Origin: Patescibacteria group bacterium
GTDB taxonomy: Bacteria; Patescibacteriota; Patescibacteriia; Magasanikbacterales; GWA2-37-8
DNA: 51,878 nucleotides
Direction: 5' to 3'
NCBI GenBank assembly: GCA_038065775.1
Contig: JBBTQE010000019.1
Location: forward strand, 1 to 51,878
This document shows, in pieces, positions 8,559-43,738 of the stretch; within the stretch, counting starts at the first letter, position 1; the number at the start of each line of letters is the position of its first letter. The translations under genes were made by a program, and so were the position numbers. The notes below the pieces were generated by a model. That model worked only from the letters and a program-made list of their open reading frames with translations. It had not been told where the DNA came from and searched no databases.

Positions 8559-9373
8559 ATTTTCTAGGAGTCAAAATCAGCGAAGTTGATTTGGAAAAAG
8601 CGCGAGAGAAAGTTCGTGAGTTTTTAGGTTCTTCAAATCAGCATAAAATTTTCACTCCCAACCCGGAAATGATTGTAAAAGCGCAGAAAGATAAATATTT
8701 TCAAGATGTCCTGAATTCCGGCGATTTGAATTTGTGTGATGGAAAAGGGTTGGAAATGTTTACAAAAATTAAACGCATTCCCGGCATTGATTTTATGTTG
8801 GAGGTTTGTAAAATTGCGGCGGAGAAGGGGACGGGTGTTTATTTGTTGGGCTCCGGCAGGGATGAAGTTGTTAAAAAAACCGCAGAGAATTTGCAAAAAC
8901 AATTTCCGGGTTTGAAAATAGTTGGGTATGATAAAGGGCCGGTGATTGAAGAGAATTGTCATTCCGAACACATTCACTGCGTTCAATGTAAACTCCGTGA
9001 GGAATCTCTGTCCAATTCGTTTGGACACGGATCCCTCGTCGGCGCGAGCCTCGCTCGGGATGACACTGTGGCTAAAATAAACGCGTGTAACCCCGACATC
9101 CTCTTCGTCGCCTTTGGCATGGGCAAGCAGGAAAAATGGATTCATGAAAATTTATCAAAAATGCCAAGCGTAAAAATCGCGATGGGAGTCGGCGGTTCGT
9201 TTGATTATATCTCCGGCAAGGCAAAACGCGCCCCTTTATTTTTACGCAAAGTTGGGTTAGAATGGATGTATCGATTGTTTAAACAGTCGAGCCGTATATG
9301 GCGAATATTAAATGCGACAGTAAGGTTTTGTTATCTGATTATCAAAAATTATATTTATGAGAAAAAAATTTAG
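8555..9373 (+). CDS. WecB/TagA/CpsF-family glycosyltransferase carrying an in-frame palindromic-element insertion
   Basis: 272 aa. The ATGA overlap with uppS suggests translational coupling. Family-typical segments include FTPNPEMIV, DILFVAFGMGKQEKWI and MGVGGSFDY. About 37 extra residues (CHSEHIHCVQCKLREESLSNSFGHGSLVGASLARDDT) are encoded by repeat copy 8957-9066. Confidence 0.75.
   Translation: MNFLGVKISEVDLEKAREKVREFLGSSNQHKIFTPNPEMIVKAQKDKYFQDVLNSGDLNLCDGKGLEMFTKIKRIPGIDFMLEVCKIAAEKGTGVYLLGSGRDEVVKKTAENLQKQFPGLKIVGYDKGPVIEENCHSEHIHCVQCKLREESLSNSFGHGSLVGASLARDDTVAKINACNPDILFVAFGMGKQEKWIHENLSKMPSVKIAMGVGGSFDYISGKAKRAPLFLRKVGLEWMYRLFKQSSRIWRILNATVRFCYLIIKNYIYEKKI
8957..9066. repeat. palindromic element, long variant, inside the tagA-like CDS
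   Basis: tgtcattccgaac...gctcgggatgaca, with terminal inverted repeats TGTCATTCCGAAC and GCTCGGGATGACA. Its 3' half matches copy 29516-29628 at 36 of 37 positions when both are read on the coding strand. Confidence 0.85.
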
Positions 9374-28694: not shown

Positions 28695-31691
28695 TCATAC
28701 CTTGTACTGGCAAATATTTTTAAAATCGCAATATTTACACGTGTGCTGGCCCGGGGTTGCGGAAAAATTTCCGGAATTGATTTGCTCGATTGTTTTAATC
28801 AGTTTCTCTTGAAGTTTAGAAATTTCTTTTTCATTTCCTAAAAACGAAACGCGCTTGTTGTCGTTTAAATAGTAGAATGTCAATTTTCCCGGCGCGCCAA
28901 TTTCTCTGTATTCTGGAAGTTGCCGCAGGGCGATTTGGTAAATTATCAGCTGGTCCTTATCTTCGCCCTCAACTTTTTCTTTTGCCTTTCCTGTTTTATA
29001 GTCAATAATTTCAAACGAACCGTCCGGCAAACGGTCAATTCTATCTATCTGACCGCGCACCAAATAATTCCCAATTTTAATTTTAAACGACGACTCCAGC
29101 CCAACCGGAATTGTCCAATTATTTTCTTCGGATTTATAAAACTCGCGTAAAATATCCTTGCCAAGCTGGTAATATTCTTCGCGTTGGAGCTTTGTATTAT
29201 ACCAATCTTCAATCCATGATTCTTCATAAAAAACAAGTAATTTATCCAACGAAGGCGCTTTGGTGGTTTTTATCGGCGCGTTCTTTCGCGGCGCGTCAAA
29301 AAGCGAGTCCTGTCTCACGTCGTTTAACTCGCATAGCCGTTCATAAAATTTATGCATCGCGCCATGCACACTTTTTCCAAAACTAAAACTCGCGCTTCCT
29401 TTGGTTGGTATTTTCAAAATGTGCGCCAGCTTGTATTGGTATGGGCATGTGCTGTAAGATTTGATTTGTGAAAATGAAAAAACGTCTGGGTGCTGATAGA
29501 TGAAGTCGGCCTTGTTGTCATCCCGAGCGAGGATCGCGCCGACGAGGGATCCCTGTCCATTTATCGATTGAGATAGGGTTTCCTCCGGAGCTTGCACTGA
29601 ACGAAGTGAATGTGTCGTCGGAATGACAGAAAACCCCAGCTCGGCTAAAAACCTGCTGATCTTTTTCGCCCTTGCCCCTCCGTAATCATCGGCGCTTAAC
29701 AAAAACAATTTTTCTTTCGCGCGCGTTATGGCCACATAGAACAAACGCCGTTCTTCCTGGCAGTGGCTATCCCCTTCCGAGAGCTGTTCTTTAATCAATT
29801 CGGCCGGTATTTCAATTCCCTCGCCGCGTCGTCTGGCAGGGAACCTATCCTCAACCAAATTAACGACAAAAACATACTTAAACTCCAGCCCTTTTGCCTT
29901 GTGGACAGTAATAATGTTAACGGAATCAGGCGTATCTGATGGCTGATAAAGCGCGCCCATATCTCCTGATTCAAGCACGTAATGAAAGTGTTCTAGAAAG
30001 CCGACAATGTTTGGGTTTGATGTTTCTGACTCATACTCATTTACATACTCAAAAAATTCTTTTAACTGATAAATTTGGCGAATCATTTCGCGATTCCCTT
30101 TTTGCTCTTCTTTTGTTAATAATTCCAACAACCCTGTTTGTTCTAAAAAGTTATACAGAATTACAGTCGGTTTTTCAGTTTTTGATTTTTGTAAGCCGAT
30201 TTGAATAATGTTTAATATTGCGGAGGTGTTTTTTTGGCCATTTTCGCTGACTCCAAATTCGCCGGTCCGCTTTAACGCTTCATAAAACGACACACTTTTC
30301 CGTTTGGCGTTATATGACAATTTCTGCATGTCTTGCTCGTTAATTTTCCAAACCGGCATGCAGAGCAATCGGTATATTGATTGTGAATCGTAAAAATTTT
30401 CCAAGACCCTAAAATAGTTTATACAGTCCAAAACAATTGGCTGACGGTAAAGTCCGGAAGCCGCCAAAAATTCGTATGGCACGCCGGCTTTTTCCAGCGC
30501 CGCCATAAATGGTTCGCTGTGGCTATTGGCCCTAACCAAAATTGCAAAATCATCCCAAACAACATTGGAATCGTTTTCTTTAGCCCGGATTATTTCTCTC
30601 ACAACCGTTTTTACTTCTTCGTCAATAGTTGAACACATAATGTGAACAACACTTTTTTCGTCAGAAGATGGAACCTTCGATGTAAACTCGGGATGATTAG
30701 CGCGGCTAATCAATTTTTTATCTAGTTTTAATTTTACCTCCAAGCGATCGGGATTATTATTTTGGATTAACTTGTAGGCAGTGTCTAAAATCTCTTGATT
30801 GGATCTATAATTTTCATTTAACACGATTTCTTTTGCCTTGGGAAAGTCATCCTTAAAACGCAAAATGTTTGAAACCGACGCGCCACGAAACGCGTATATG
30901 CTCTGGTCGTCATCTCCCACCACCGTTAGATTTGGGTTTTCGCCGGCCAGCAATTGCACCAATTGATACTGCGCCCAATTTACATCCTGGAACTCATCAA
31001 TAAGAATGTATTTGAATCTTTTTCTCAACTTGTCGGTAATATTTTCGCGGGTTTGCAAAAGTTTTAATGTATAAAAAATCAGGTCGCCAAAATCCAGCGC
31101 CTCATTTTCCAAAAGAAGTTGGTTGTATGTGTGGTACGCATTGGCTACTTCTGATAAGCGAGTTTTTTCGTCGGTATTATCTTTATTCAGCTTGTTATCT
31201 TCCGCTAAATTCAAGTAGTCGTCCGGCGTTATCAATTCATCTTTGCATTTGTTAAAATGAGTAATCAATTCATGGATGTGCCCGGAGGGATTCCCAAGCG
31301 GACTATAATAATCCAAATTAAATTTGTCCAAATTTTTCCTCATTAACATCCACGCCTCGGATTCGGTTGCAAGTTTAAACTTATTGCTTAAACCAATGTC
31401 CAGCGCGTATTTTTCCAAAATTTTCTGGCAGAATGAATGAAATGTTGAAATTTGTAAATCAACATACCCGATCTCAATCAGATTATCCACTCGGGTAAGC
31501 ATTTCATCGGCCGCTTTTTCGGTAAAGGTTAAAGCCAAAACCTCCTCGGGAGTAGCGAGTTTTTGTTCAATTAAATAGGCGATTTTTTGCGTTATAACCG
31601 TTGTTTTACCGGTCCCGGCGCCGGCAACGATGATAAGCGGGCCATTGTTGTATTCCACGGCCTCTTTCTGGGCTTTGTTAAGAGTTTGCAT
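28695..31691 (-). CDS. UvrD/PcrA-type SF1 helicase fused to a C-terminal PD-(D/E)xK Cas4/AddB-like Fe-S nuclease
   Basis: 998 aa. Helicase motifs include VAGAGTGKTTV (Walker A), ILIDEFQDVN, VGDDDQSIYAFRGA and TVHKAKGLEF. The C-terminal nuclease has CPYQYKL...GQIDRID...IIDYKTGK...QLIIYQ...CKYCDFKNIC. The linker contains repeat copy 29516-29628. Confidence 0.85.
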   Translation of the reverse strand: MQTLNKAQKEAVEYNNGPLIIVAGAGTGKTTVITQKIAYLIEQKLATPEEVLALTFTEKAADEMLTRVDNLIEIGYVDLQISTFHSFCQKILEKYALDIGLSNKFKLATESEAWMLMRKNLDKFNLDYYSPLGNPSGHIHELITHFNKCKDELITPDDYLNLAEDNKLNKDNTDEKTRLSEVANAYHTYNQLLLENEALDFGDLIFYTLKLLQTRENITDKLRKRFKYILIDEFQDVNWAQYQLVQLLAGENPNLTVVGDDDQSIYAFRGASVSNILRFKDDFPKAKEIVLNENYRSNQEILDTAYKLIQNNNPDRLEVKLKLDKKLISRANHPEFTSKVPSSDEKSVVHIMCSTIDEEVKTVVREIIRAKENDSNVVWDDFAILVRANSHSEPFMAALEKAGVPYEFLAASGLYRQPIVLDCINYFRVLENFYDSQSIYRLLCMPVWKINEQDMQKLSYNAKRKSVSFYEALKRTGEFGVSENGQKNTSAILNIIQIGLQKSKTEKPTVILYNFLEQTGLLELLTKEEQKGNREMIRQIYQLKEFFEYVNEYESETSNPNIVGFLEHFHYVLESGDMGALYQPSDTPDSVNIITVHKAKGLEFKYVFVVNLVEDRFPARRRGEGIEIPAELIKEQLSEGDSHCQEERRLFYVAITRAKEKLFLLSADDYGGARAKKISRFLAELGFSVIPTTHSLRSVQAPEETLSQSINGQGSLVGAILARDDNKADFIYQHPDVFSFSQIKSYSTCPYQYKLAHILKIPTKGSASFSFGKSVHGAMHKFYERLCELNDVRQDSLFDAPRKNAPIKTTKAPSLDKLLVFYEESWIEDWYNTKLQREEYYQLGKDILREFYKSEENNWTIPVGLESSFKIKIGNYLVRGQIDRIDRLPDGSFEIIDYKTGKAKEKVEGEDKDQLIIYQIALRQLPEYREIGAPGKLTFYYLNDNKRVSFLGNEKEISKLQEKLIKTIEQINSGNFSATPGQHTCKYCDFKNICQYKV
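29516..29628. repeat. palindromic element, long variant, inside the helicase-nuclease CDS
   Basis: tgtcatcccgagcgagg...tcgtcggaatgaca. On the minus strand it is translated as VIPTTHSLRSVQAPEETLSQSINGQGSLVGAILARDD. Confidence 0.85.
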
Positions 31692-36889: not shown

Positions 36890-36966
36890 TGTCATTCCGA
36901 ACGCAGTGAGGAATCTCTGTCCAATTGGCCAACCGACAGAGATCCTTCGCTTCGCTCAGGATGACA
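36890..36966. repeat. palindromic element (atpD|atpG intergenic)
   Basis: tgtcattccgaacgcagtgaggaatctctgtcc-aattggccaacc-gacagagatccttcgcttcgctcaggatgaca. Confidence 0.9.
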
Positions 36967-36980
36967 AATTGTAATATGAA

Positions 36981-37934
36981 TTATTCCAATGCCGCGGCGC
37001 CGCCTGCTATTTCCGCAATTTCTTGCGTAATGCCTGCTTGCCTGGCTTTATTAAAATTCAAATTTAATTCTTTGATCATATCTTCAGCCGCGTCGCTCGC
37101 GCTCCTCATCGCCACCATTCTGGCGCTGTGTTCGCTGGCGGACGACTCCAACATCGCCTGATAAATTTGCATCTCAACCAGACGCGGTAAAATTATTTTT
37201 AAAACATCCAGTTTGTTTGGTTCAAAAAGATAATTGCCTAATTCAATCTCCGTTTTTTGTTCGTGAGATTTGCTTACCTCTTCAATTTCATTTAACATCT
37301 TTTCAAGATCAACTTCTGAAATAGGCAAAACCTGTCTTAATTTCGCGATTTGCGCGATTGTGGATTTAAAATCCGTGTATGCGACGATAACTTTGTCGTA
37401 GACCTTGTTTTCATAATCATTAACGACCATTCTTCCGATCGGCAAGGCATCATTCATGTTAGGGGTATCAGACAAATTTGTAAATGATGCGATTAAATTA
37501 TACCCCATTTTTTTCGCAAAATCCGCGCCTTTTTTTCCGATGCCAATTACATCAACTTCAATTTTATCGCTTGGCGCGACTACTCTTCCACTAACTCTTT
37601 GTCTGCTGATATTTTTTGGATCTTTTAATTGCTCGGATGTTTTTCTGATGATGTTTGAATTAAAACTTCCGCACAATCCCCTGTTTGATGTTATCATGAT
37701 TACCAAAACTTTTTTTACCTGTCTGGCTTCAAGCAACGGGATTTGCATTTTTTCTCCTTGCGAAAGATGAACAAGCAAATCCCAAGCAAGCGTTGCGTAA
37801 TTTCGAGTATCCAAAGCAGCGCTGACGGCTTTTCTCATTTTTGCCGCCGCGACCATTTCCATCGCTTTCGTAATCTTTCGCGTGCTTCCGACGGATTTTA
37901 TTCTTCGTTTGATTGCTTTGGTGTTTACGGCCAT
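36981..37934 (-). CDS. atpG: F1 ATP synthase gamma subunit
   Basis: 317 aa. The N-terminus IKRRIKSVGSTRKITKAMEMVAAAKMRKA and the C-terminus ITQEIAEIAGGAAAL are gamma-subunit signatures. Confidence 0.9.
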   Translation of the reverse strand: MAVNTKAIKRRIKSVGSTRKITKAMEMVAAAKMRKAVSAALDTRNYATLAWDLLVHLSQGEKMQIPLLEARQVKKVLVIMITSNRGLCGSFNSNIIRKTSEQLKDPKNISRQRVSGRVVAPSDKIEVDVIGIGKKGADFAKKMGYNLIASFTNLSDTPNMNDALPIGRMVVNDYENKVYDKVIVAYTDFKSTIAQIAKLRQVLPISEVDLEKMLNEIEEVSKSHEQKTEIELGNYLFEPNKLDVLKIILPRLVEMQIYQAMLESSASEHSARMVAMRSASDAAEDMIKELNLNFNKARQAGITQEIAEIAGGAAALE

Positions 37935-37941
37935 ATAATTC

Positions 37942-38024
37942 TGTCATCCTGAACGCAGTGAAGGATCTCTGTCCATATTGTTTTGACGAACAAGACAGAG
38001 ATTCTTCGTATGCTCAGAATGACA
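37942..38024. repeat. palindromic element (atpG|atpA intergenic)
   Basis: tgtcatcctgaacgcagtgaaggatctctgtcc-atattgttttgacgaaca-agacagagattcttcgtatgctcagaatgaca. Confidence 0.9.
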
Positions 38025-38036
38025 ACTGATAATAAA

Positions 38037-39524
38037 CTACTTCTTAAACTCCTCGCAAGCCGACTTTAATTCCGCTTCAATTTTTTCGTCCCACTCGCCT
38101 GCGGAAATTTTATTTAACAGCTGTCTTTTGCCCTTGCGCATAAAATCCGCGAACTTTTTTTCAGCGACCGGAATATCTTTTACCGCAACGCTGTCAAAAA
38201 ACCCATTGTTCGCCGCATAAATAACAGCAACTTGATCTTCAACCGCAACCGGTTGGTACTGTGGCTGTTTCAAAAGCTCTGTAATGCGTTGACCGCGGTC
38301 AATCTGTTTCTTTGTTTCCGGATCCAAATCGCTGGCAAACTGCGCAAACGCTTCCAGTTCTCTAAATTGCGCCATTGCCAATTTCAATTTGCCTGCAACT
38401 TTTTTCATTGGTTTAATTTGAGCGGCTCCGCCAACGCGTGACACAGAAATACCGACATTCAAAGCAGGACGGATGCCCCGGTAGAACAAGTCGGTTTCCA
38501 AAAAAATCTGGCCATCGGTAATGGAAATCACGTTTGTCGGGATGTACGCTGTCACATCGCTTGCCTGTGTTTCGATTATAGGCAAAGCGGTGATAGATCC
38601 GCCCCCGGATTCTTCGTTTCTGCGGCAAGCGCGTTCCAATAATCTTGAATGTAAATAGAAAACATCGCCTGGGTATGCCTCACGGCCAGGTGGTCTGCGG
38701 AGCAAAAGCGAAATCTCGCGGTATGCCCATGCCTGTTTGGACAAATCGTCATAAACGCATAAAACATCTTTGCCCTGATCCATAAAATACTCGGCCATAG
38801 CAACACCGGCGTAAGGGGCGATGTATGCCAACGAGGCCGGTTGTGACGCGCCTGCGACGACAACAATCGTGTAATCCATAGCGCCCGCTTCTTTCAGTTT
38901 GGCGACGATACGCGCAACCTTAGATTCTTTTTGACCAATGGCAACATAAACACAAATCATGTCCTTGCCTTTTTGGTTGATAATAGTATCAATCGCAACC
39001 GCGGTTTTTCCGGTTTGGCGATCGCCGATAATAAGCTCTCGCTGTCCGCGTCCGATTGGAATCATAGCGTCAATCGCTTTAATACCTGTTTGCACCGGTT
39101 GTGTTACCGGCTGACGTTTCATTACGCCCGGAGCAATTTTTTCAATCGGATAAAACCTTGAGGATTTAATATCTTTTCCACCATCAATTGCTTGACCCAG
39201 AGGATTAACAACACGCCCAATCAATTCTTCTCCGACCGGCACAGACAAAATTCTGCCCGTTCTTTTTACAGTATCCCCTTCTTTAATATGTTTATATTCT
39301 CCAAGCAACACGCAACCTACGGTTTCTTCCTCAAGATTTAGCGCCAAACCAAAAGTTCCGCCTTCAAACTCAATCATTTCGCTGGCTTGAATTTTTGTTA
39401 AACCGGAAAGACGCGCGATGCCGTCGCCTACTTCTATAACTTTACCGGTTTCTTCTTTTTCAACTTCTTTTTGAAAAAGAGAAATATTTTTTTTCAATTC
39501 TTCAACAATGGAATTGGTTGACAT
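38037..39524 (-). CDS. atpA: F1 ATP synthase alpha subunit
   Basis: 495 aa with GDRQTGKTA (Walker A) and ITDGQIFLE. Confidence 0.95.
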
Positions 39525-39530
39525 ATCTAT

Positions 39531-39914
39531 TTAAATTAATTGATTTTTTAATCTTGATAATTGTTTTTTTAAACTCGCGTCGTAAACGATATTATCAACT
39601 TTTATTCTGATTCCGCCAATCAAATTCGGATTCGTTGTTTCTTTTATCTCCGCGTTGTCTCCGAATGTTTTTTTAATTTTGCTTAATGTTATTTTGCTTA
39701 ACTCGCCGGCTGACTCAACTTCAACCTCTTTAATGCCATCCTGATTTTTTGAGTACCTTTCAAATTCATCTATTATATATTCAATTTTCTTTAACTTTCT
39801 ATCTTTTAAAAGCAATGACAAAAATTGTTTCGCGACTTCATCCAAATGATTCTTTGGCGCGTCTTTTGACACCTCATACAACGCTTTTGCGTATTGTTTG
39901 TTGCTTTTTTTCAT
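39531..39914 (-). CDS. atpH: F1 ATP synthase delta (OSCP) subunit, short form
   Basis: 127 aa. The call rests on its position between atpF and atpA, the YAKALYEV N-terminus and the LIGGIRIKVDNIVYDASL C-terminus. It is shorter than typical delta subunits. Confidence 0.7.
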   Translation of the reverse strand: MKKSNKQYAKALYEVSKDAPKNHLDEVAKQFLSLLLKDRKLKKIEYIIDEFERYSKNQDGIKEVEVESAGELSKITLSKIKKTFGDNAEIKETTNPNLIGGIRIKVDNIVYDASLKKQLSRLKNQLI

Positions 39915-39919
39915 ACCAA

Positions 39920-40504
39920 TTAGATCTTCATGCTTTCTACCGCTTCTTCAATAATTTTTTTATCTTTTGTTGAATCCAATTTGCTGGAAAGAATTTTTTC
40001 CGTGGCCATGACTACTAAATTCGCGGCCTGCTCCCTTACTTCGTTAATTGATTCATCGCGTTCGGCTTTGATATTTTTTCTTGCCTGCTCCACAAGCAAT
40101 TCTATGTCTTCCTTGGCTTTCACCTTCATATCATCGCCCAATTTTACGGCTTCCTGTTGGGCTTTCTCAGTTATTTTATTCGCTTCAACTTTTGCGTCAT
40201 CAACCCTTTCTTGAAATTTTCTTTCACTCATCATTAAATTTGTTTCAACTTTTCTGGAATTTTCAATACTGGCATCAATCATTTTTTGCCTTTCGGCCAT
40301 CTTTTTTGTAAGCGGTTTAAGAATTAAAAACCATAAAATCAAAGCAACCGCGATAAAATTGATTAACTGAAAAATAAATAGTGTGCCGTTAATGCCGAGG
40401 GAGGCCAGCACTCCGCCATCAGCTGCGGCTTCGGTGGCATGCCCTGCGCCCTCTACGGCTTTTTTAATAGGTTCTGACGCGTATACAGTTTCAATAAAAT
40501 TCAT
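39920..40504 (-). CDS. atpF: Fo ATP synthase b subunit
   Basis: 194 aa. A single TM helix (LFIFQLINFIAVALILWFLIL) is followed by a long charged helix. Confidence 0.8.
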   Translation of the reverse strand: MNFIETVYASEPIKKAVEGAGHATEAAADGGVLASLGINGTLFIFQLINFIAVALILWFLILKPLTKKMAERQKMIDASIENSRKVETNLMMSERKFQERVDDAKVEANKITEKAQQEAVKLGDDMKVKAKEDIELLVEQARKNIKAERDESINEVREQAANLVVMATEKILSSKLDSTKDKKIIEEAVESMKI

Positions 40505-40515
40505 ATATTTTATTT

Positions 40516-40598
40516 TGTCATTCTGAGTGAAACGAAGAATCTCTCTCTACTGGTTCTGATAATACAGACAGATATCCTTCATTACATTCAGGATGACA
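40516..40598. repeat. palindromic element (atpF|atpE intergenic)
   Basis: tgtcattctgagtgaaacgaagaatctctctc-tactggttctgataataca-gacagatatccttcattacattcaggatgaca. Confidence 0.85.
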
Positions 40599-40647
40599 TT
40601 TTAAATAAGTCAATTCCATTGGGCTCTTATGAACCCAATGAGTTGAA

Positions 40648-40869
40648 TTACTTCAATGTGAAAACAACGACCAACGCATAAATAGCGATGGCTTCGGCAA
40701 ACGCGGCGCCGAGCAACATCGGAACGAATAATTTGTCCGATGCCTCCGGGTTGCGACCGATGGCTTGCATGGCTTTGGCAACAAGATTGCCGATAGCCAA
40801 GGCAGGCCCAAAGCCGCCGATGGCCATTGTCAAACCCTTTACCAACGCGACCACTGATTCGTGCTCCAT
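40648..40869 (-). CDS. atpE: Fo ATP synthase c subunit
   Basis: 73 aa forming a two-helix hairpin, with the polar loop GRNPE and the conserved carboxylate in AFAEAIAIYALVV. Confidence 0.9.
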   Translation of the reverse strand: MEHESVVALVKGLTMAIGGFGPALAIGNLVAKAMQAIGRNPEASDKLFVPMLLGAAFAEAIAIYALVVVFTLK

Positions 40870-40956
40870 ACGATTTTTACCTTTCAGACACCATCCGTTC
40901 GAGGGAATAATATATTTAACCTCGCAAATGGCATCTTTAAAAATTAATCGACCTAA

Positions 40957-41778
40957 TTAATGTGTTAAAGTCGGCTCTGCGCGCGTTTTATGGCTGTCTT
41001 TTTCTTCGTGGCCATGCGGCGCCGTGGACATTATGGTTAAATAAACCAATGTTAACATTGTAAACACGCTGGCCTGAATCAATCCAACCAAAACCTCCAG
41101 CATCATAAACGGCGCAGGCACCAAAAGCGCGGCGATACTGCTGATTACGGAAATTAAAACTTCGCCGGCAAAAATATTTCCAAACAACCTAAGCGAAAGA
41201 GACAAGATTTTTGCAATTTCGCTGATGATTTCTATGAGTCCTACGGCCAATTCAACTACGGCGGTAAAAATCGCAACCGGACCTTTTGTTAAACTTTTAA
41301 AAAACGTCCCGATTTGAATAAATTTGTTTAGATGAGTAAACACGCCTACGGTTATAAAACCAAAAACATGGGACGAGAGCACGGCAACGACCGCCATTGC
41401 CGCCGTAAGGTTTAAATCGGTGTTGGCGGGGCGAAGCAACATGCTCTGGCCAAGCTTAATACTTCCGGTTCCCGGCAATAGGCCGAGCCAGTTGGAGAGT
41501 AAAATAAAAAAGAAGACGGATCCGACAATCGGCAAAAAGCGCATTGTCTTTTTTCTGTCTCCGGTCACTCTGTCAAAATATCCAAGAAGTTTTTCTAAAA
41601 AAAATTCCATGAAGTTTTGCATTTTTCCGGGTTTGACGCTCAATCTCTTGCGGATAGTCAACCCTAGCACTAGGAAAATAATAATCGCCAGCCACGTATT
41701 AATAATAGTATTGGTAATTGGCAGTTTTCCAATATGAAATAGGGTTTCTGGCGCTAATGTTGGTATGTGAAATTCCAT
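40957..41778 (-). CDS. atpB: Fo ATP synthase a subunit
   Basis: It contains LSLRLFGNIFAGE with the essential Arg. The start is taken at MEFHIPTLAPE (41778). The longer track start at 41793 (MTQKT) lies inside repeat copy 41788-41852. Confidence 0.85.
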   Translation of the reverse strand: MEFHIPTLAPETLFHIGKLPITNTIINTWLAIIIFLVLGLTIRKRLSVKPGKMQNFMEFFLEKLLGYFDRVTGDRKKTMRFLPIVGSVFFFILLSNWLGLLPGTGSIKLGQSMLLRPANTDLNLTAAMAVVAVLSSHVFGFITVGVFTHLNKFIQIGTFFKSLTKGPVAIFTAVVELAVGLIEIISEIAKILSLSLRLFGNIFAGEVLISVISSIAALLVPAPFMMLEVLVGLIQASVFTMLTLVYLTIMSTAPHGHEEKDSHKTRAEPTLTH

Positions 41779-41787
41779 AGTTTTCTG

Positions 41788-41852
41788 TGTCATCCCGAAC
41801 TTGTTTCGGGATCTACTGTAATTTCAGATGCTGAAACAAGTTCAGCATGACA
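41788..41852. repeat. palindromic element, short variant (atpB|atpI-like intergenic)
   Basis: tgtcatcccgaacttgtttcgggatct-actgtaatttc-agatgctgaaacaagttcagcatgaca. Confidence 0.85.
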
Positions 41853-41860
41853 ATTAAATT

Positions 41861-42118
41861 TTACTTACCCAACTTCTTATACTCTTCTCCGTAATTTTTT
41901 GCTTTTTTGTGGATTATTTTTACAGAAATAAGCGCGGCAAGAACAAATCCTAAAATCGTGAATAGCGGACCGCGGCGATATTTTTCATCCAAATATTGGC
42001 CGGCCAGCACAAACAAAATTACCGGAATTGCGATTGATGCGCCAAAATCCCCCATTATCTTGAATGCAAACAAGTAATATTCTCTACTCTTTGATTTTTG
42101 CGGGATTTTTTCATCCAT
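41861..42118 (-). CDS. AtpZ/AtpI-like small membrane protein (first gene of the atp operon)
   Basis: The start is taken at MDEKIPQK (42118), because the longer ORF would cover the promoter. The product has two TM helices (FGASIAIPVILFVLAGQYLD..., LFTILGFVLAALISV), as in the ATPase_gene1 family. Confidence 0.6.
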   Translation of the reverse strand: MDEKIPQKSKSREYYLFAFKIMGDFGASIAIPVILFVLAGQYLDEKYRRGPLFTILGFVLAALISVKIIHKKAKNYGEEYKKLGK

Positions 42119-42143
42119 ATTACAATCATTAAACGACGCCAAT

Positions 42144-42172
42144 ATTTTACAAAAAAAACCCGGTAAAGTCAA
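42144..42172 (-). promoter_or_regulatory. sigma-70-type promoter of the atp operon
   Basis: On the minus strand: TTGACT (42172-42167), a 17-nt spacer, then TAAAAT (42149-42144), about 25 nt upstream of the atpI-like ATG. Confidence 0.6.
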
Positions 42173-42217
42173 GGCTTTTTTAAATTCACTATAATTGAAT
42201 ACCGAAATATCTGAATA

Positions 42218-43138
42218 TTAAGATATTTTGAACAATTTCTTCGCATTTTCTGTTGTTTTGTTTAAGACCGCTTCTTCGGGAACGCCTTTTATCTCCGCAA
42301 TCTTTTTCGCCACTTCTTCCACCATCCATGGCTCGCAACGCTGGCCTCGATAGGCCTGCGGAGCCAAATATGGCGCGTCTGTTTCCACCAACATCCGCTC
42401 AAGCGGACACTTTTCAACAACTTCAAGCAAGTCCAATTGTGTTTGCGGATCGGTTTTTTTGGGCGGGAATGTGATAACGCCGGTAAAACCAAGATATAAT
42501 CCCAAATCCAAATACTGCTCGGCAATTTCCCAATTACTTGTATAGCAGTGAATAACGCCGCGGATGGTAGATTTTGTCATCCCGAACGCATGTGAAGGAT
42601 TTCTGTCGGTTGTATTTTTGGACAGAGATTCCTCGTCGCTTTGCTCGCTCGGAATGACAAGATACCGCAACAACCCAATCATTTCTTCATGCGCTTCTCT
42701 AACGTGTATGACTAATGGCAAGCCAAGTTCTTTGGCTAAATTATACTGGGCTAGGAATATCTCCTTTTGTTTTTTCAAAACTTCCTCCCCGCCAACTCCT
42801 TTCGGCAGATGAAAAAAATCCAACCCACACTCCCCTATCGCGATTACTTTTTTATTCTTCGCCAGCTTTTTGTAATATTCATAATCAAATTCTTCTTCGC
42901 GCGACTCAAACTTTGCTTCCGCTTCGTCAACGCGCGATTTAAAAAGATGGATCGGATGCAATCCGACCGTGGCATAAATATTATCGTATTTTCCCGCGTA
43001 TTCTACCGCCCGGGCGCTCGTGTCTCTTTGCGATCCGACCGCGTTCAAGATTACATTTTTTTCAACGCAACGTTTAATTACTTCGTCCGCGTCGTCTTTA
43101 TACGCGCTAAATTGTATATGGCAGTGGGTGTCTAACAT
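42218..43138 (-). CDS. TatD-family metal-dependent hydrolase carrying an in-frame palindromic-element insertion
   Basis: 306 aa with MLDTHCHIQF, IGECGLDF, LVIHVREA, VIHCYTS and ETDAPYL. About 29 extra residues (VIPSEQSDEESLSKNTTDRNPSHAFGMTK) lie between the HVREA and HCYT strands and are encoded by repeat copy 42575-42659. Confidence 0.85.
   Translation of the reverse strand: MLDTHCHIQFSAYKDDADEVIKRCVEKNVILNAVGSQRDTSARAVEYAGKYDNIYATVGLHPIHLFKSRVDEAEAKFESREEEFDYEYYKKLAKNKKVIAIGECGLDFFHLPKGVGGEEVLKKQKEIFLAQYNLAKELGLPLVIHVREAHEEMIGLLRYLVIPSEQSDEESLSKNTTDRNPSHAFGMTKSTIRGVIHCYTSNWEIAEQYLDLGLYLGFTGVITFPPKKTDPQTQLDLLEVVEKCPLERMLVETDAPYLAPQAYRGQRCEPWMVEEVAKKIAEIKGVPEEAVLNKTTENAKKLFKIS
42575..42659. 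repeat. palindromic element inside the tatD CDS
   Basis: tgtcatcccgaacgcatgtgaaggatttctgtcgg-ttgtattttt-ggacagagattcctcgtcgctttgctcgctcggaatgaca. Confidence 0.9.
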
Positions 43139-43141
43139 ATC

Positions 43142-43666
43142 TTATATTATCCCGTCCACCGTGCTTCGCAACATTTTCAGCGCTTCGGGAAACAACGGCA
43201 CTAAAATGGAAGCTAGCTTAACCAGCGGCGGAGCGAACTGCGACTCGCCCAAAGCATTCATAAAAAATGAACCGAGCGGAAATCTGGAAATAAAATACAA
43301 GGAAATTCCGACTACCAAAGCGCCTTCAAAAATACCAAAAATAAGACCGGCTATTTTATCAAGACCTCGTATAAATGGAAGCTTGGTAAAAATGCTTAAA
43401 ACTTTTTGCATAATCCAAAACACAAATCCGACAAGCCGCGCGATTATTAAAAAAACAATTACAAAAATTACTACTTTAACGTGATTTTGATTCCAACTCG
43501 TAAAATTTATAACCCAATTGGCGATCGGCTCGTAATATCTGCTTGCCAAATAAACACCAAACACCGTGCCGAGCAAAGAGCCAACTGTATGCAATAGGCC
43601 AAACCATAATCCAAATAACCCAAAGCCGCTTATGATTATAATTAAAACTATATCAAATATAGACAT
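43142..43666 (-). CDS. CvpA-family membrane protein
   Basis: The start is taken at MSIFDIVLIIIISGFGLFGLWFGLL. It has four TM helices and a GLIFGIFEGALVVG motif. Confidence 0.7.
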   Translation of the reverse strand: MSIFDIVLIIIISGFGLFGLWFGLLHTVGSLLGTVFGVYLASRYYEPIANWVINFTSWNQNHVKVVIFVIVFLIIARLVGFVFWIMQKVLSIFTKLPFIRGLDKIAGLIFGIFEGALVVGISLYFISRFPLGSFFMNALGESQFAPPLVKLASILVPLFPEALKMLRSTVDGII

Positions 43667-43690
43667 AATAAAATTATTTAAATACAACTA

Positions 43691-43738
43691 GATTGCTTCG
43701 CGGAATTTATCCCGCGCAGAGGCGGGGCTCGCAATGAC
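43691..43738. repeat. half or degenerate copy of the palindromic element (single arm)
   Basis: Read on the minus strand it is tgtcATTGCgagccccgcctctgcgcgggataaattccgcgaaGCAATct. This keeps the TGTC terminus and the ATNNC...GNNAT arm hairpin, but there is no second arm. Confidence 0.5.

Follow-up and report, generated by a model that had tools for sequence, protein, structure and literature searches.

Related palindromic repeats

REP sequences of the CGTC superfamily are short hairpins with a terminal tag, for which TGTC (and also CCTC) is an accepted variant, a stem that must span 8-9 bp and begins with an A-T and then a T-A pair, a loop of 4-5 nt and a short 3' tail with the consensus CCA (PMC3733652). 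They form predominantly HH dimers, with the tags on the outside, around spacers of 20-100 bp that are often structured and have complementary ends, and no dedicated transposase is associated with them. Intragenic copies exist both of these REPs and of those with the GTAG tag, and REPs are also known as RNA elements (PMC3733652). In REPIN/RAYT systems, which are made of GTAG REPs, inverted pairs of REP hairpins act together as single units that spread through genomes. MITEs with coding capacity, such as Correia/NEMIS and ERIC/RU-1, have terminal inverted repeats and a long stem-loop, and are occasionally fused in frame to genes (PMC2229807).

Rickettsia palindromic elements (RPEs) provide a precedent for palindromic repeats that are fused in frame to conserved genes (Ogata et al. 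2000, as cited in PMC2229807). They are short palindromes of small-genome bacteria that occur both between genes and in frame within housekeeping genes. The one tested Rickettsia case, an RPE-bearing guanylate kinase (gmk), is translated and tolerated; the enzyme is active and has an altered substrate affinity (Abergel 2006, as cited there).

Our analysis of a window of 51,878 nucleotides from a tiny groundwater member of the Patescibacteria concerns an element that lies inside tatD and shows the same behavior as RPEs. The resemblance is one of behavior, in a different phylum. Elements here are shorter than RPEs (about 70-110 bp), they are very dense, with at least 27 copies located in ORFs of a 769-kb genome, and a single protein loop is reused by several repeat families across relatives. 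In the literature searched, no paper ties in-frame palindromic repeats to Patescibacteria or Magasanikbacteria, and such repeats appear undescribed in this phylum. The element in tatD is thus a known kind of event in a new lineage; the new part, judging from sequence comparisons, is the apparent reuse of one TatD loop by multiple repeat classes and their turnover among relatives.

An in-frame repeat within tatD

The host gene encodes a YcfH/TatD-type metal-dependent hydrolase/DNase. Its product matches the Pfam family TatD_DNase (PF01026) over residues 3-304 (7.9e-72, with 242 bits where the curated cut-off is 27), and the best PDB sequence match is 1j6o (8.7e-44), with 6l25 and 1yix matching as well. 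It is the single TatD-family match in the source genome, G000 (769 kb in 76 contigs, 42% G+C). Exactly the same protein is recorded from five contigs, which means that it is not a one-off assembly artefact. The gene order metG-x-cvpA-tatD-atpI-atpB is kept in all loci that were fetched, with one exception: in one relative, a NUDIX gene (L026:2418-2843) sits between tatD and an atpI-like gene.

The original prediction, made from the letters of the window, held that the uninterrupted tatD ORF contains an 85-bp palindromic element, that this element is translated in frame, and that it belongs with the repeats in the atp spacers. All three points are borne out. The element, TGTCATCCCGAACG...CGCTCGGAATGACA, is an imperfect palindrome with a folding energy of -36.5 kcal/mol (z = -5.3), which none of 200 shuffles equaled. 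A family HMM recovers it with E = 1.4e-13, and the element shares 76% identity with the atp spacer copy at 36891-36965; its nearest copy (80% identity), at C5:7322-7407, is itself within an ORF. Positions 42575-42658 encode TatD residues 161-188, VIPSEQSDEESLSKNTTDRNPSHAFGMT, in frame. The insertion junction reads CTT|GTCATT, and the net addition of 84 nt introduces no stop into the reading frame.

Two details of the prediction required adjustment. The acidic loop, expected to have about 29 residues, has 28, and with a net charge of about -3 it is mildly acidic. The element had also been termed a short variant, which is not simply so, because one of its arms is short and the other long, making it a heterodimer (Table 1).

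Table 1. Features of the tatD locus and repeat copies in the window
Feature	Positions	Strand	Remarks
tatD (YcfH/TatD-type metal-dependent hydrolase/DNase)	42218..43138	minus	ORF, 306 aa, uninterrupted
Palindromic element TGTCAT...ATGACA, 85 bp	42575..42659	minus	inside tatD
Short arm, one TGTC-tagged REP hairpin	42575..42603	plus	
Spacer, complementary ends TCTGTC...GACAGA	42601..42628	not assigned	
Long arm	42627..42659	minus	sense strand: TGTC ATTCC GAGCGAGCAAAGCGACGA GGAAT C
Helix alpha 150-161 (HEEMIGLLRYLV), ahead of insert	42656..42691	minus	AlphaFold2 model
Strand 194-197 (GVIH)	42548..42559	minus	invariant His197 at C-terminal end
Intergenic sister copy, atp operon	36891..36965	not assigned	comparison copy
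Other window copies	37943-38023, 40517-40597, 41789-41851		
In-ORF window copies	8958-9064, 29517-29627		

We consider it likely that a non-autonomous palindromic repeat inserted into tatD, is translated as a tolerated passenger loop, and was acquired locally in this lineage. In the proposed sequence of events, a unit of two TGTC-tagged REP hairpins with outward tags would have entered the coding sequence at the junction between the helix and the short loop that precedes strand 194-197. Reading through it would yield a 28-residue loop that is mildly acidic and probably disordered. Because this loop would lie opposite the metal site, TatD is most likely still able to fold and work, and the insert would be a tolerated passenger rather than a new functional part. 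This lineage probably gained the copy when the repeats multiplied locally near tatD and the atp operon. Near-identical strains differ by an insert and a patch of substitutions next to it, a pattern that homologous recombination of short tracts carrying filled alleles would explain no less well than transposition de novo.

Hairpin anatomy

Every copy of the repeat has a T flank on the left and an A(A) flank on the right, which defines the unit as TGTCAT...ATGACA. Genome-wide, the TGTC tag is present in 96 of 102 arms, and a reversed-genome control gave no matches. The tag is followed by an outer stem of 5 bp, AT[CT]C[CT]/[AG]G[AG]AT, and then by a tandem G.A/A.G step (81 of the 102 arms) and two more pairs, so that the stem has a total of nine positions, two of which are G.A mismatches rather than Watson-Crick pairs. 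The modal arm interior of 11 nt (GA-RY-NNN-RY-GA) leaves a 3-nt loop, and the 3-nt tail is mostly CTC (64 of 102 arms), with CCA present in 6. In all full copies, the tags are on the outside and the spacers have complementary ends, which in this genome take the form CTCTGTCC...GGACAGAG.

Both arms of the tatD copy follow this plan with modifications. The short arm is made up of the tag TGTC, the stem ATCCC/AGGAT, the tandem GA, AC/GT pairs, a 4-nt loop and the tail TTC, and the long arm is a REP hairpin whose expanded interior carries a CGACG/CGTCG motif. The inner stem formed by the spacer ends is of the type usual in the genome's own subfamily. Some arms elsewhere, such as that at 36941-36965 in the window, have interiors like GAGCGAAGCGA, in which GCGAAGC, which we take to be the classic, very stable DNA mini-hairpin, is flanked by tandem G.A steps. 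Such interiors suggest that the arms are built as unusually stable single-stranded DNA hairpins.

As Di Nocera et al. 2013 define these classes, the element is an HH dimer of a TGTC variant of the CGTC-tagged REPs, close to that superfamily. It has in common with that superfamily the tag, the initial A-T and T-A pairs, a stem of about nine positions, the dimeric arrangement around a spacer with complementary ends and the existence of intragenic copies. A short 3' tail exists here too, but with CTC in place of CCA. The element also differs in its modal loop of 3 nt, in the tandem G.A/A.G step, and in the phylum, which that survey did not sample (PMC3733652). REPIN/RAYT systems also consist of paired hairpins, but the GTAG tag is absent here and no Y1/RAYT transposase (PF01797) was matched in G000, a 95% complete draft, whereas control genomes did produce matches. 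Likewise, searches of G000 for TnpB/OrfB, DDE_1, rve and IS110 (PF01385, PF01609, PF00665, PF01548) gave no match. Transposase genes often go unassembled in draft genomes, which makes such results weak negative evidence; they do agree with the situation of CGTC REPs. Unlike MITEs, the element has no evident target-site duplication beyond its T...A(A) flanks, and the genome yielded no parent IS whose ends match.

Distribution across the genome

The window contains 13 instances of the terminal motif, where 2.8 would be expected. In the 769-kb assembly, the family HMM identifies 47 loci, and a looser pattern yields 55 clean copies, among them members of two related subfamilies, GTCATTGCGA... and GTCATCCTGAACTT..., the latter of 55-65 bp. 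The copy number is about 55-60. Members of the shorter family, GTCATCCTGAACTT...AAGTTCAGCATGAC (window 41789-41851; G000 C55:2255-2331 and C65:8535-8590), are found both in intergenic regions and in frame within uvrA-like and prmC-like ORFs.

Slightly less than half of the copies (27 of 55) are within ORFs of at least 150 codons, where all three phases and both orientations are seen. Among these, 15 of 27 have a length that, increased by one, is a multiple of three, compared with 5 of 28 intergenic copies. Such an enrichment of frame-keeping lengths is predicted if selection filters insertions into real, translated genes. The hosts, identified by reading their sequences, include the core genes queA, ksgA, ychF, leuS, secA, lepA and rsmH, as well as ileS, truB (an assignment that was confirmed), dnaE, gatB, uvrA, trmD and others. 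Three or four in-frame elements, different in phase and subfamily, are present in single ORFs at C5:6716-8161 (queA-like), on C6 (ksgA-like) and at C25:3089-6844 (leuS-like). The absence of stops in all frames was considered as a property of the family and rejected, as the mean number of open frames is 1.4 for intergenic copies, 2.6 for copies in ORFs and 2.2 for random genomic DNA.

Copies are unusually dense around tatD. Six TGTCAT elements fall within about 7 kb (36891-43738), a stretch that comprises the atp operon spacers, tatD and the cvpA|metG spacer, in contrast to roughly one copy per 13 kb genome-wide. The nearest relative (L025), whose TatD is 83% identical, has no TGTCAT elements in its syntenic 6.9-kb tatD-atp locus, and its TatD loop holds only a small CCCCGC/GCGGGG hairpin. 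The six copies here and the absence of any there indicate that the tatD copy belongs to a lineage-specific local expansion.

This clustering, mostly in atp operon spacers, together with the strong predicted hairpin and the precedent of REPs that act on RNA (PMC3733652), is what one would expect if the element functioned mainly as an mRNA-stabilizing or processing hairpin in a cvpA-tatD-atp transcript, its passage through coding sequence being incidental. However, the strand that folds better is not preferred among copies in ORFs (13 sense and 14 antisense), nothing relevant was hit when 36.5-44 kb was compared with Rfam (E <= 1), no run of T residues follows the hairpin, and the operon of the nearest relative does without these elements. 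A primary role as RNA therefore appears improbable.

Location of the insert in the TatD structure

In PDB alignments, TatD falls into two blocks, residues 1-158 and 192-305. The crystal chains pass from the first block directly to the second, so that about 30 residues of TatD are extra. An AlphaFold2 model, built on an alignment of 120 orthologues, has a mean pLDDT of 92.4 and a pTM of 0.88. Its (beta/alpha)8 fold superposes on solved TatD/YcfH structures: Foldseek returned 1j6o with E = 5e-25 and TMt 0.89 and 1yix with TMt 0.86, and the range over 1j6o, 6l25 and 1yix is 0.86-0.90. In the model, helix 150-161 is followed by coil through residue 193 and then by strand 194-197. The insert itself is poorly modeled, with mean pLDDT values of 67, 50 and 55 for successive 10-residue blocks across 161-190, and is probably a floppy, disordered surface loop.

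The original prediction stated that canonical TatD proteins have only a short loop between the LVIHVREA and GVIHCY strands. In fact the first of these strands is followed by a 12-residue helix (150-161), and the insert occupies the loop of 4-5 residues after this helix. Structure prediction and crystal alignment, which had been proposed as a check, thus place the extra residues in a helix-to-strand loop of a barrel that is kept.

The insert starts about six residues ahead of the strand that bears the catalytic His197, and enters at the N-terminal end of that strand. In (beta/alpha)8 barrels, catalytic residues are located at the C-terminal ends of the strands. By this topology, the modeled loop would be on the barrel face opposite the metal site, and the earlier description of an insertion within a catalytic barrel overstates the risk to the enzyme.

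Empty and filled loops in orthologues

Orthologues were drawn from 40 related genomes of the same family or order but different genera, from which 20 were fetched, and from the 120 closest database entries, whose sources name Candidatus Magasanikbacteria or Patescibacteria. The loop is empty, with 4-5 residues, in 15 of the 20 and in 73 of the 120. The extra residues are therefore not a lineage-wide conserved TatD loop, the finding that had been named in advance as fatal to the prediction.

In four other fetched orthologues, the filled loop contains a GTCATTGCGA...TCGCAATGAC element (G014), a GTCATTCTGA... element in the same frame (G013), a repeat in another frame that gives CHSERSEESL... (G020), or a different palindrome, CCCCTCC/GGAGGGG (G015). 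In the larger set, the same loop is longer by more than 10 residues in 47 of the 120 proteins, and the reading frame is intact in every one of these. These inserts derive from at least four repeat classes, and their peptides can be sorted into VIP (10), CHS (5), VIA (13), GG-rich (10) and other types, some of which have short motifs such as EESLS in common. The CHS class is the same DNA family as VIP, translated in another reading frame. Junctions differ slightly by class: those of the VIP class, to which the G000 copy belongs, are exactly CTT|GTCAT, those of the CHS class are one base later, and those of the VIA class are 3-6 bases earlier.

The GC-rich palindromes in this loop (CCCCTCC/GGAGGGG and CCCCGC/GCGGGG) give peptides like SPPFQGGARGG and are carried by P0003, P0037, P0078, P0081 and P0109, as well as by L005 (G015) and L025 (P0004). 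Elsewhere in the 120 TatD proteins, no repeat-derived inserts were found. A second site after IHVRD, with 8-12 residues in 10 orthologues, was considered, but it does not look repeat-derived.

On a TatD tree built without the insert columns, the carriers among the fetched orthologues are parted by well-supported branches and have empty sisters. For the 120 orthologues, the pattern of presence and absence needs at least 28 changes on the tree. The inner stem of the elements is genome-specific, and in both G000 and G013 the insert in tatD has the type of its own genome, which argues for local origin or local homogenization.

These results bear on whether the insert was ancestral in the TatD clade and was precisely lost many times instead of being gained repeatedly. 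The presence of the VIP class in four lineages at the identical nucleotide, along with the tendency of palindromes to be deleted (PMC3733652), is in keeping with such a history. Common ancestry would not account for at least four unrelated repeat classes in different frames with junctions offset by 1-6 nt, nor for inserts that carry the inner stem of their own genome; moreover, empty loops resemble ordinary TatD loops, and the carriers are scattered over well-supported clades. We consider an ancestral insert unlikely. The TatD loop instead appears, from these comparisons, to be a permissive landing site with fast turnover in Magasanikbacteria-like relatives.

TruB provides a second example. 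Two loops of its orthologues (G000 truB at C66:271-1365, compared with P0122-P0146) are repeatedly filled with VIP, CHS, GG-rich and other peptides, and this similar behavior indicates that the hot spot is not peculiar to TatD.

Consequences for TatD function

All 49 columns that are invariant among the 120 orthologues are preserved in TatD, including H5, H7, E103, H145, H197 and D254, which are assigned as metal ligands in this family. The dN/dS ratio relative to the nearest homologue is about 0.11, like that of other pairs, but the branch is long and dS is near saturation, and as an average this weak measure cannot show that constraint persisted after the insertion.

The original prediction left two outcomes, an enzyme that tolerates the loop or one that is inactivated while its frame remains open. 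With invariant residues intact, a dN/dS of this order, a barrel with a pLDDT of 92 and similar inserts in about a third of orthologues, sequence and model together favor the former, and the insert is probably tolerated rather than inactivating. A young pseudogene that is still open by chance would be in line with the readiness of small-genome Patescibacteria to lose genes, and with an insertion of 28 residues that lies only a short way along the chain from the His197 strand. It is quite improbable, even so, since this is the sole TatD gene of the genome, 47 of 120 orthologues combine inserts in the same loop with intact frames, and the insert is expected on the non-catalytic face of a confidently modeled barrel. 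Some effect on folding or stability is conceivable for a tolerated insert as well, given its closeness to that strand; the Rickettsia gmk insert did alter substrate affinity.

Strain-level turnover of the loop

Contigs that come from the same aquifer samples form two pairs, each with one filled and one empty tatD, whose members are 100% identical over about 2.5 kb outside the insert and a patch of substitutions. The members of each pair differ by the insert (81 or 69 bp) and by 15-22 substitutions within about 25-100 nt of it. Such clustered substitutions could represent either a short imported recombination tract or error-prone repair at the insertion. A donor of the divergent patch was sought among the 120 orthologues, and no clear one was found. 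In another close pair, the same TatD loop holds two different element families.

That the loop is an adaptive, selected addition, such as an interaction surface or a regulatory loop, is very unlikely, because, although inserts are frequent, persist with open frames in many lineages and in some classes have motifs such as EESLS in common, these motifs stem from the DNA repeat rather than the host protein, the peptides vary by repeat family and frame among close relatives (VIP, CHS, VIA, GG-rich), some strains that are otherwise nearly identical have the insert while others lack it, and the segment is predicted to be disordered.

A tolerated passenger loop makes tatD a clean and structurally interpretable case of selfish palindromic DNA that is translated within an enzyme, apparently with no obvious damage. 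It also represents a natural insertion-tolerance experiment, in which one loop takes 20-40 residues of varied sequence in dozens of lineages, and may be of use in studies of TIM-barrel robustness and of how transposase-less REP-like repeats move. For the annotation of Patescibacteria proteins, it implies that many "unique insertions" would be repeat DNA.

A broader and more tentative proposal, which we regard as possible but not likely, is that the TatD loop, like certain TruB loops and probably loops of other core enzymes, is a targeted insertion hot spot for multiple families in Magasanikbacteria-like Patescibacteria. Several unrelated repeat families would enter, replace one another and leave on a strain-level time scale, and filled alleles may move between lineages through recombination of short patches, with the conserved catalytic strands as anchors. 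If true, it would amount to a general route, as yet undescribed, by which repeats remodel the surface loops of essential proteins in reduced genomes.

A second cluster of differences, with 10 substitutions and indels, is present between the otherwise identical strains L021 (296-355) and L022, in the gene upstream of cvpA, and may be another repeat-associated variable spot. This gene encodes 276 aa in one strain contig and is split into ORFs of 64 and 201 aa in the other.
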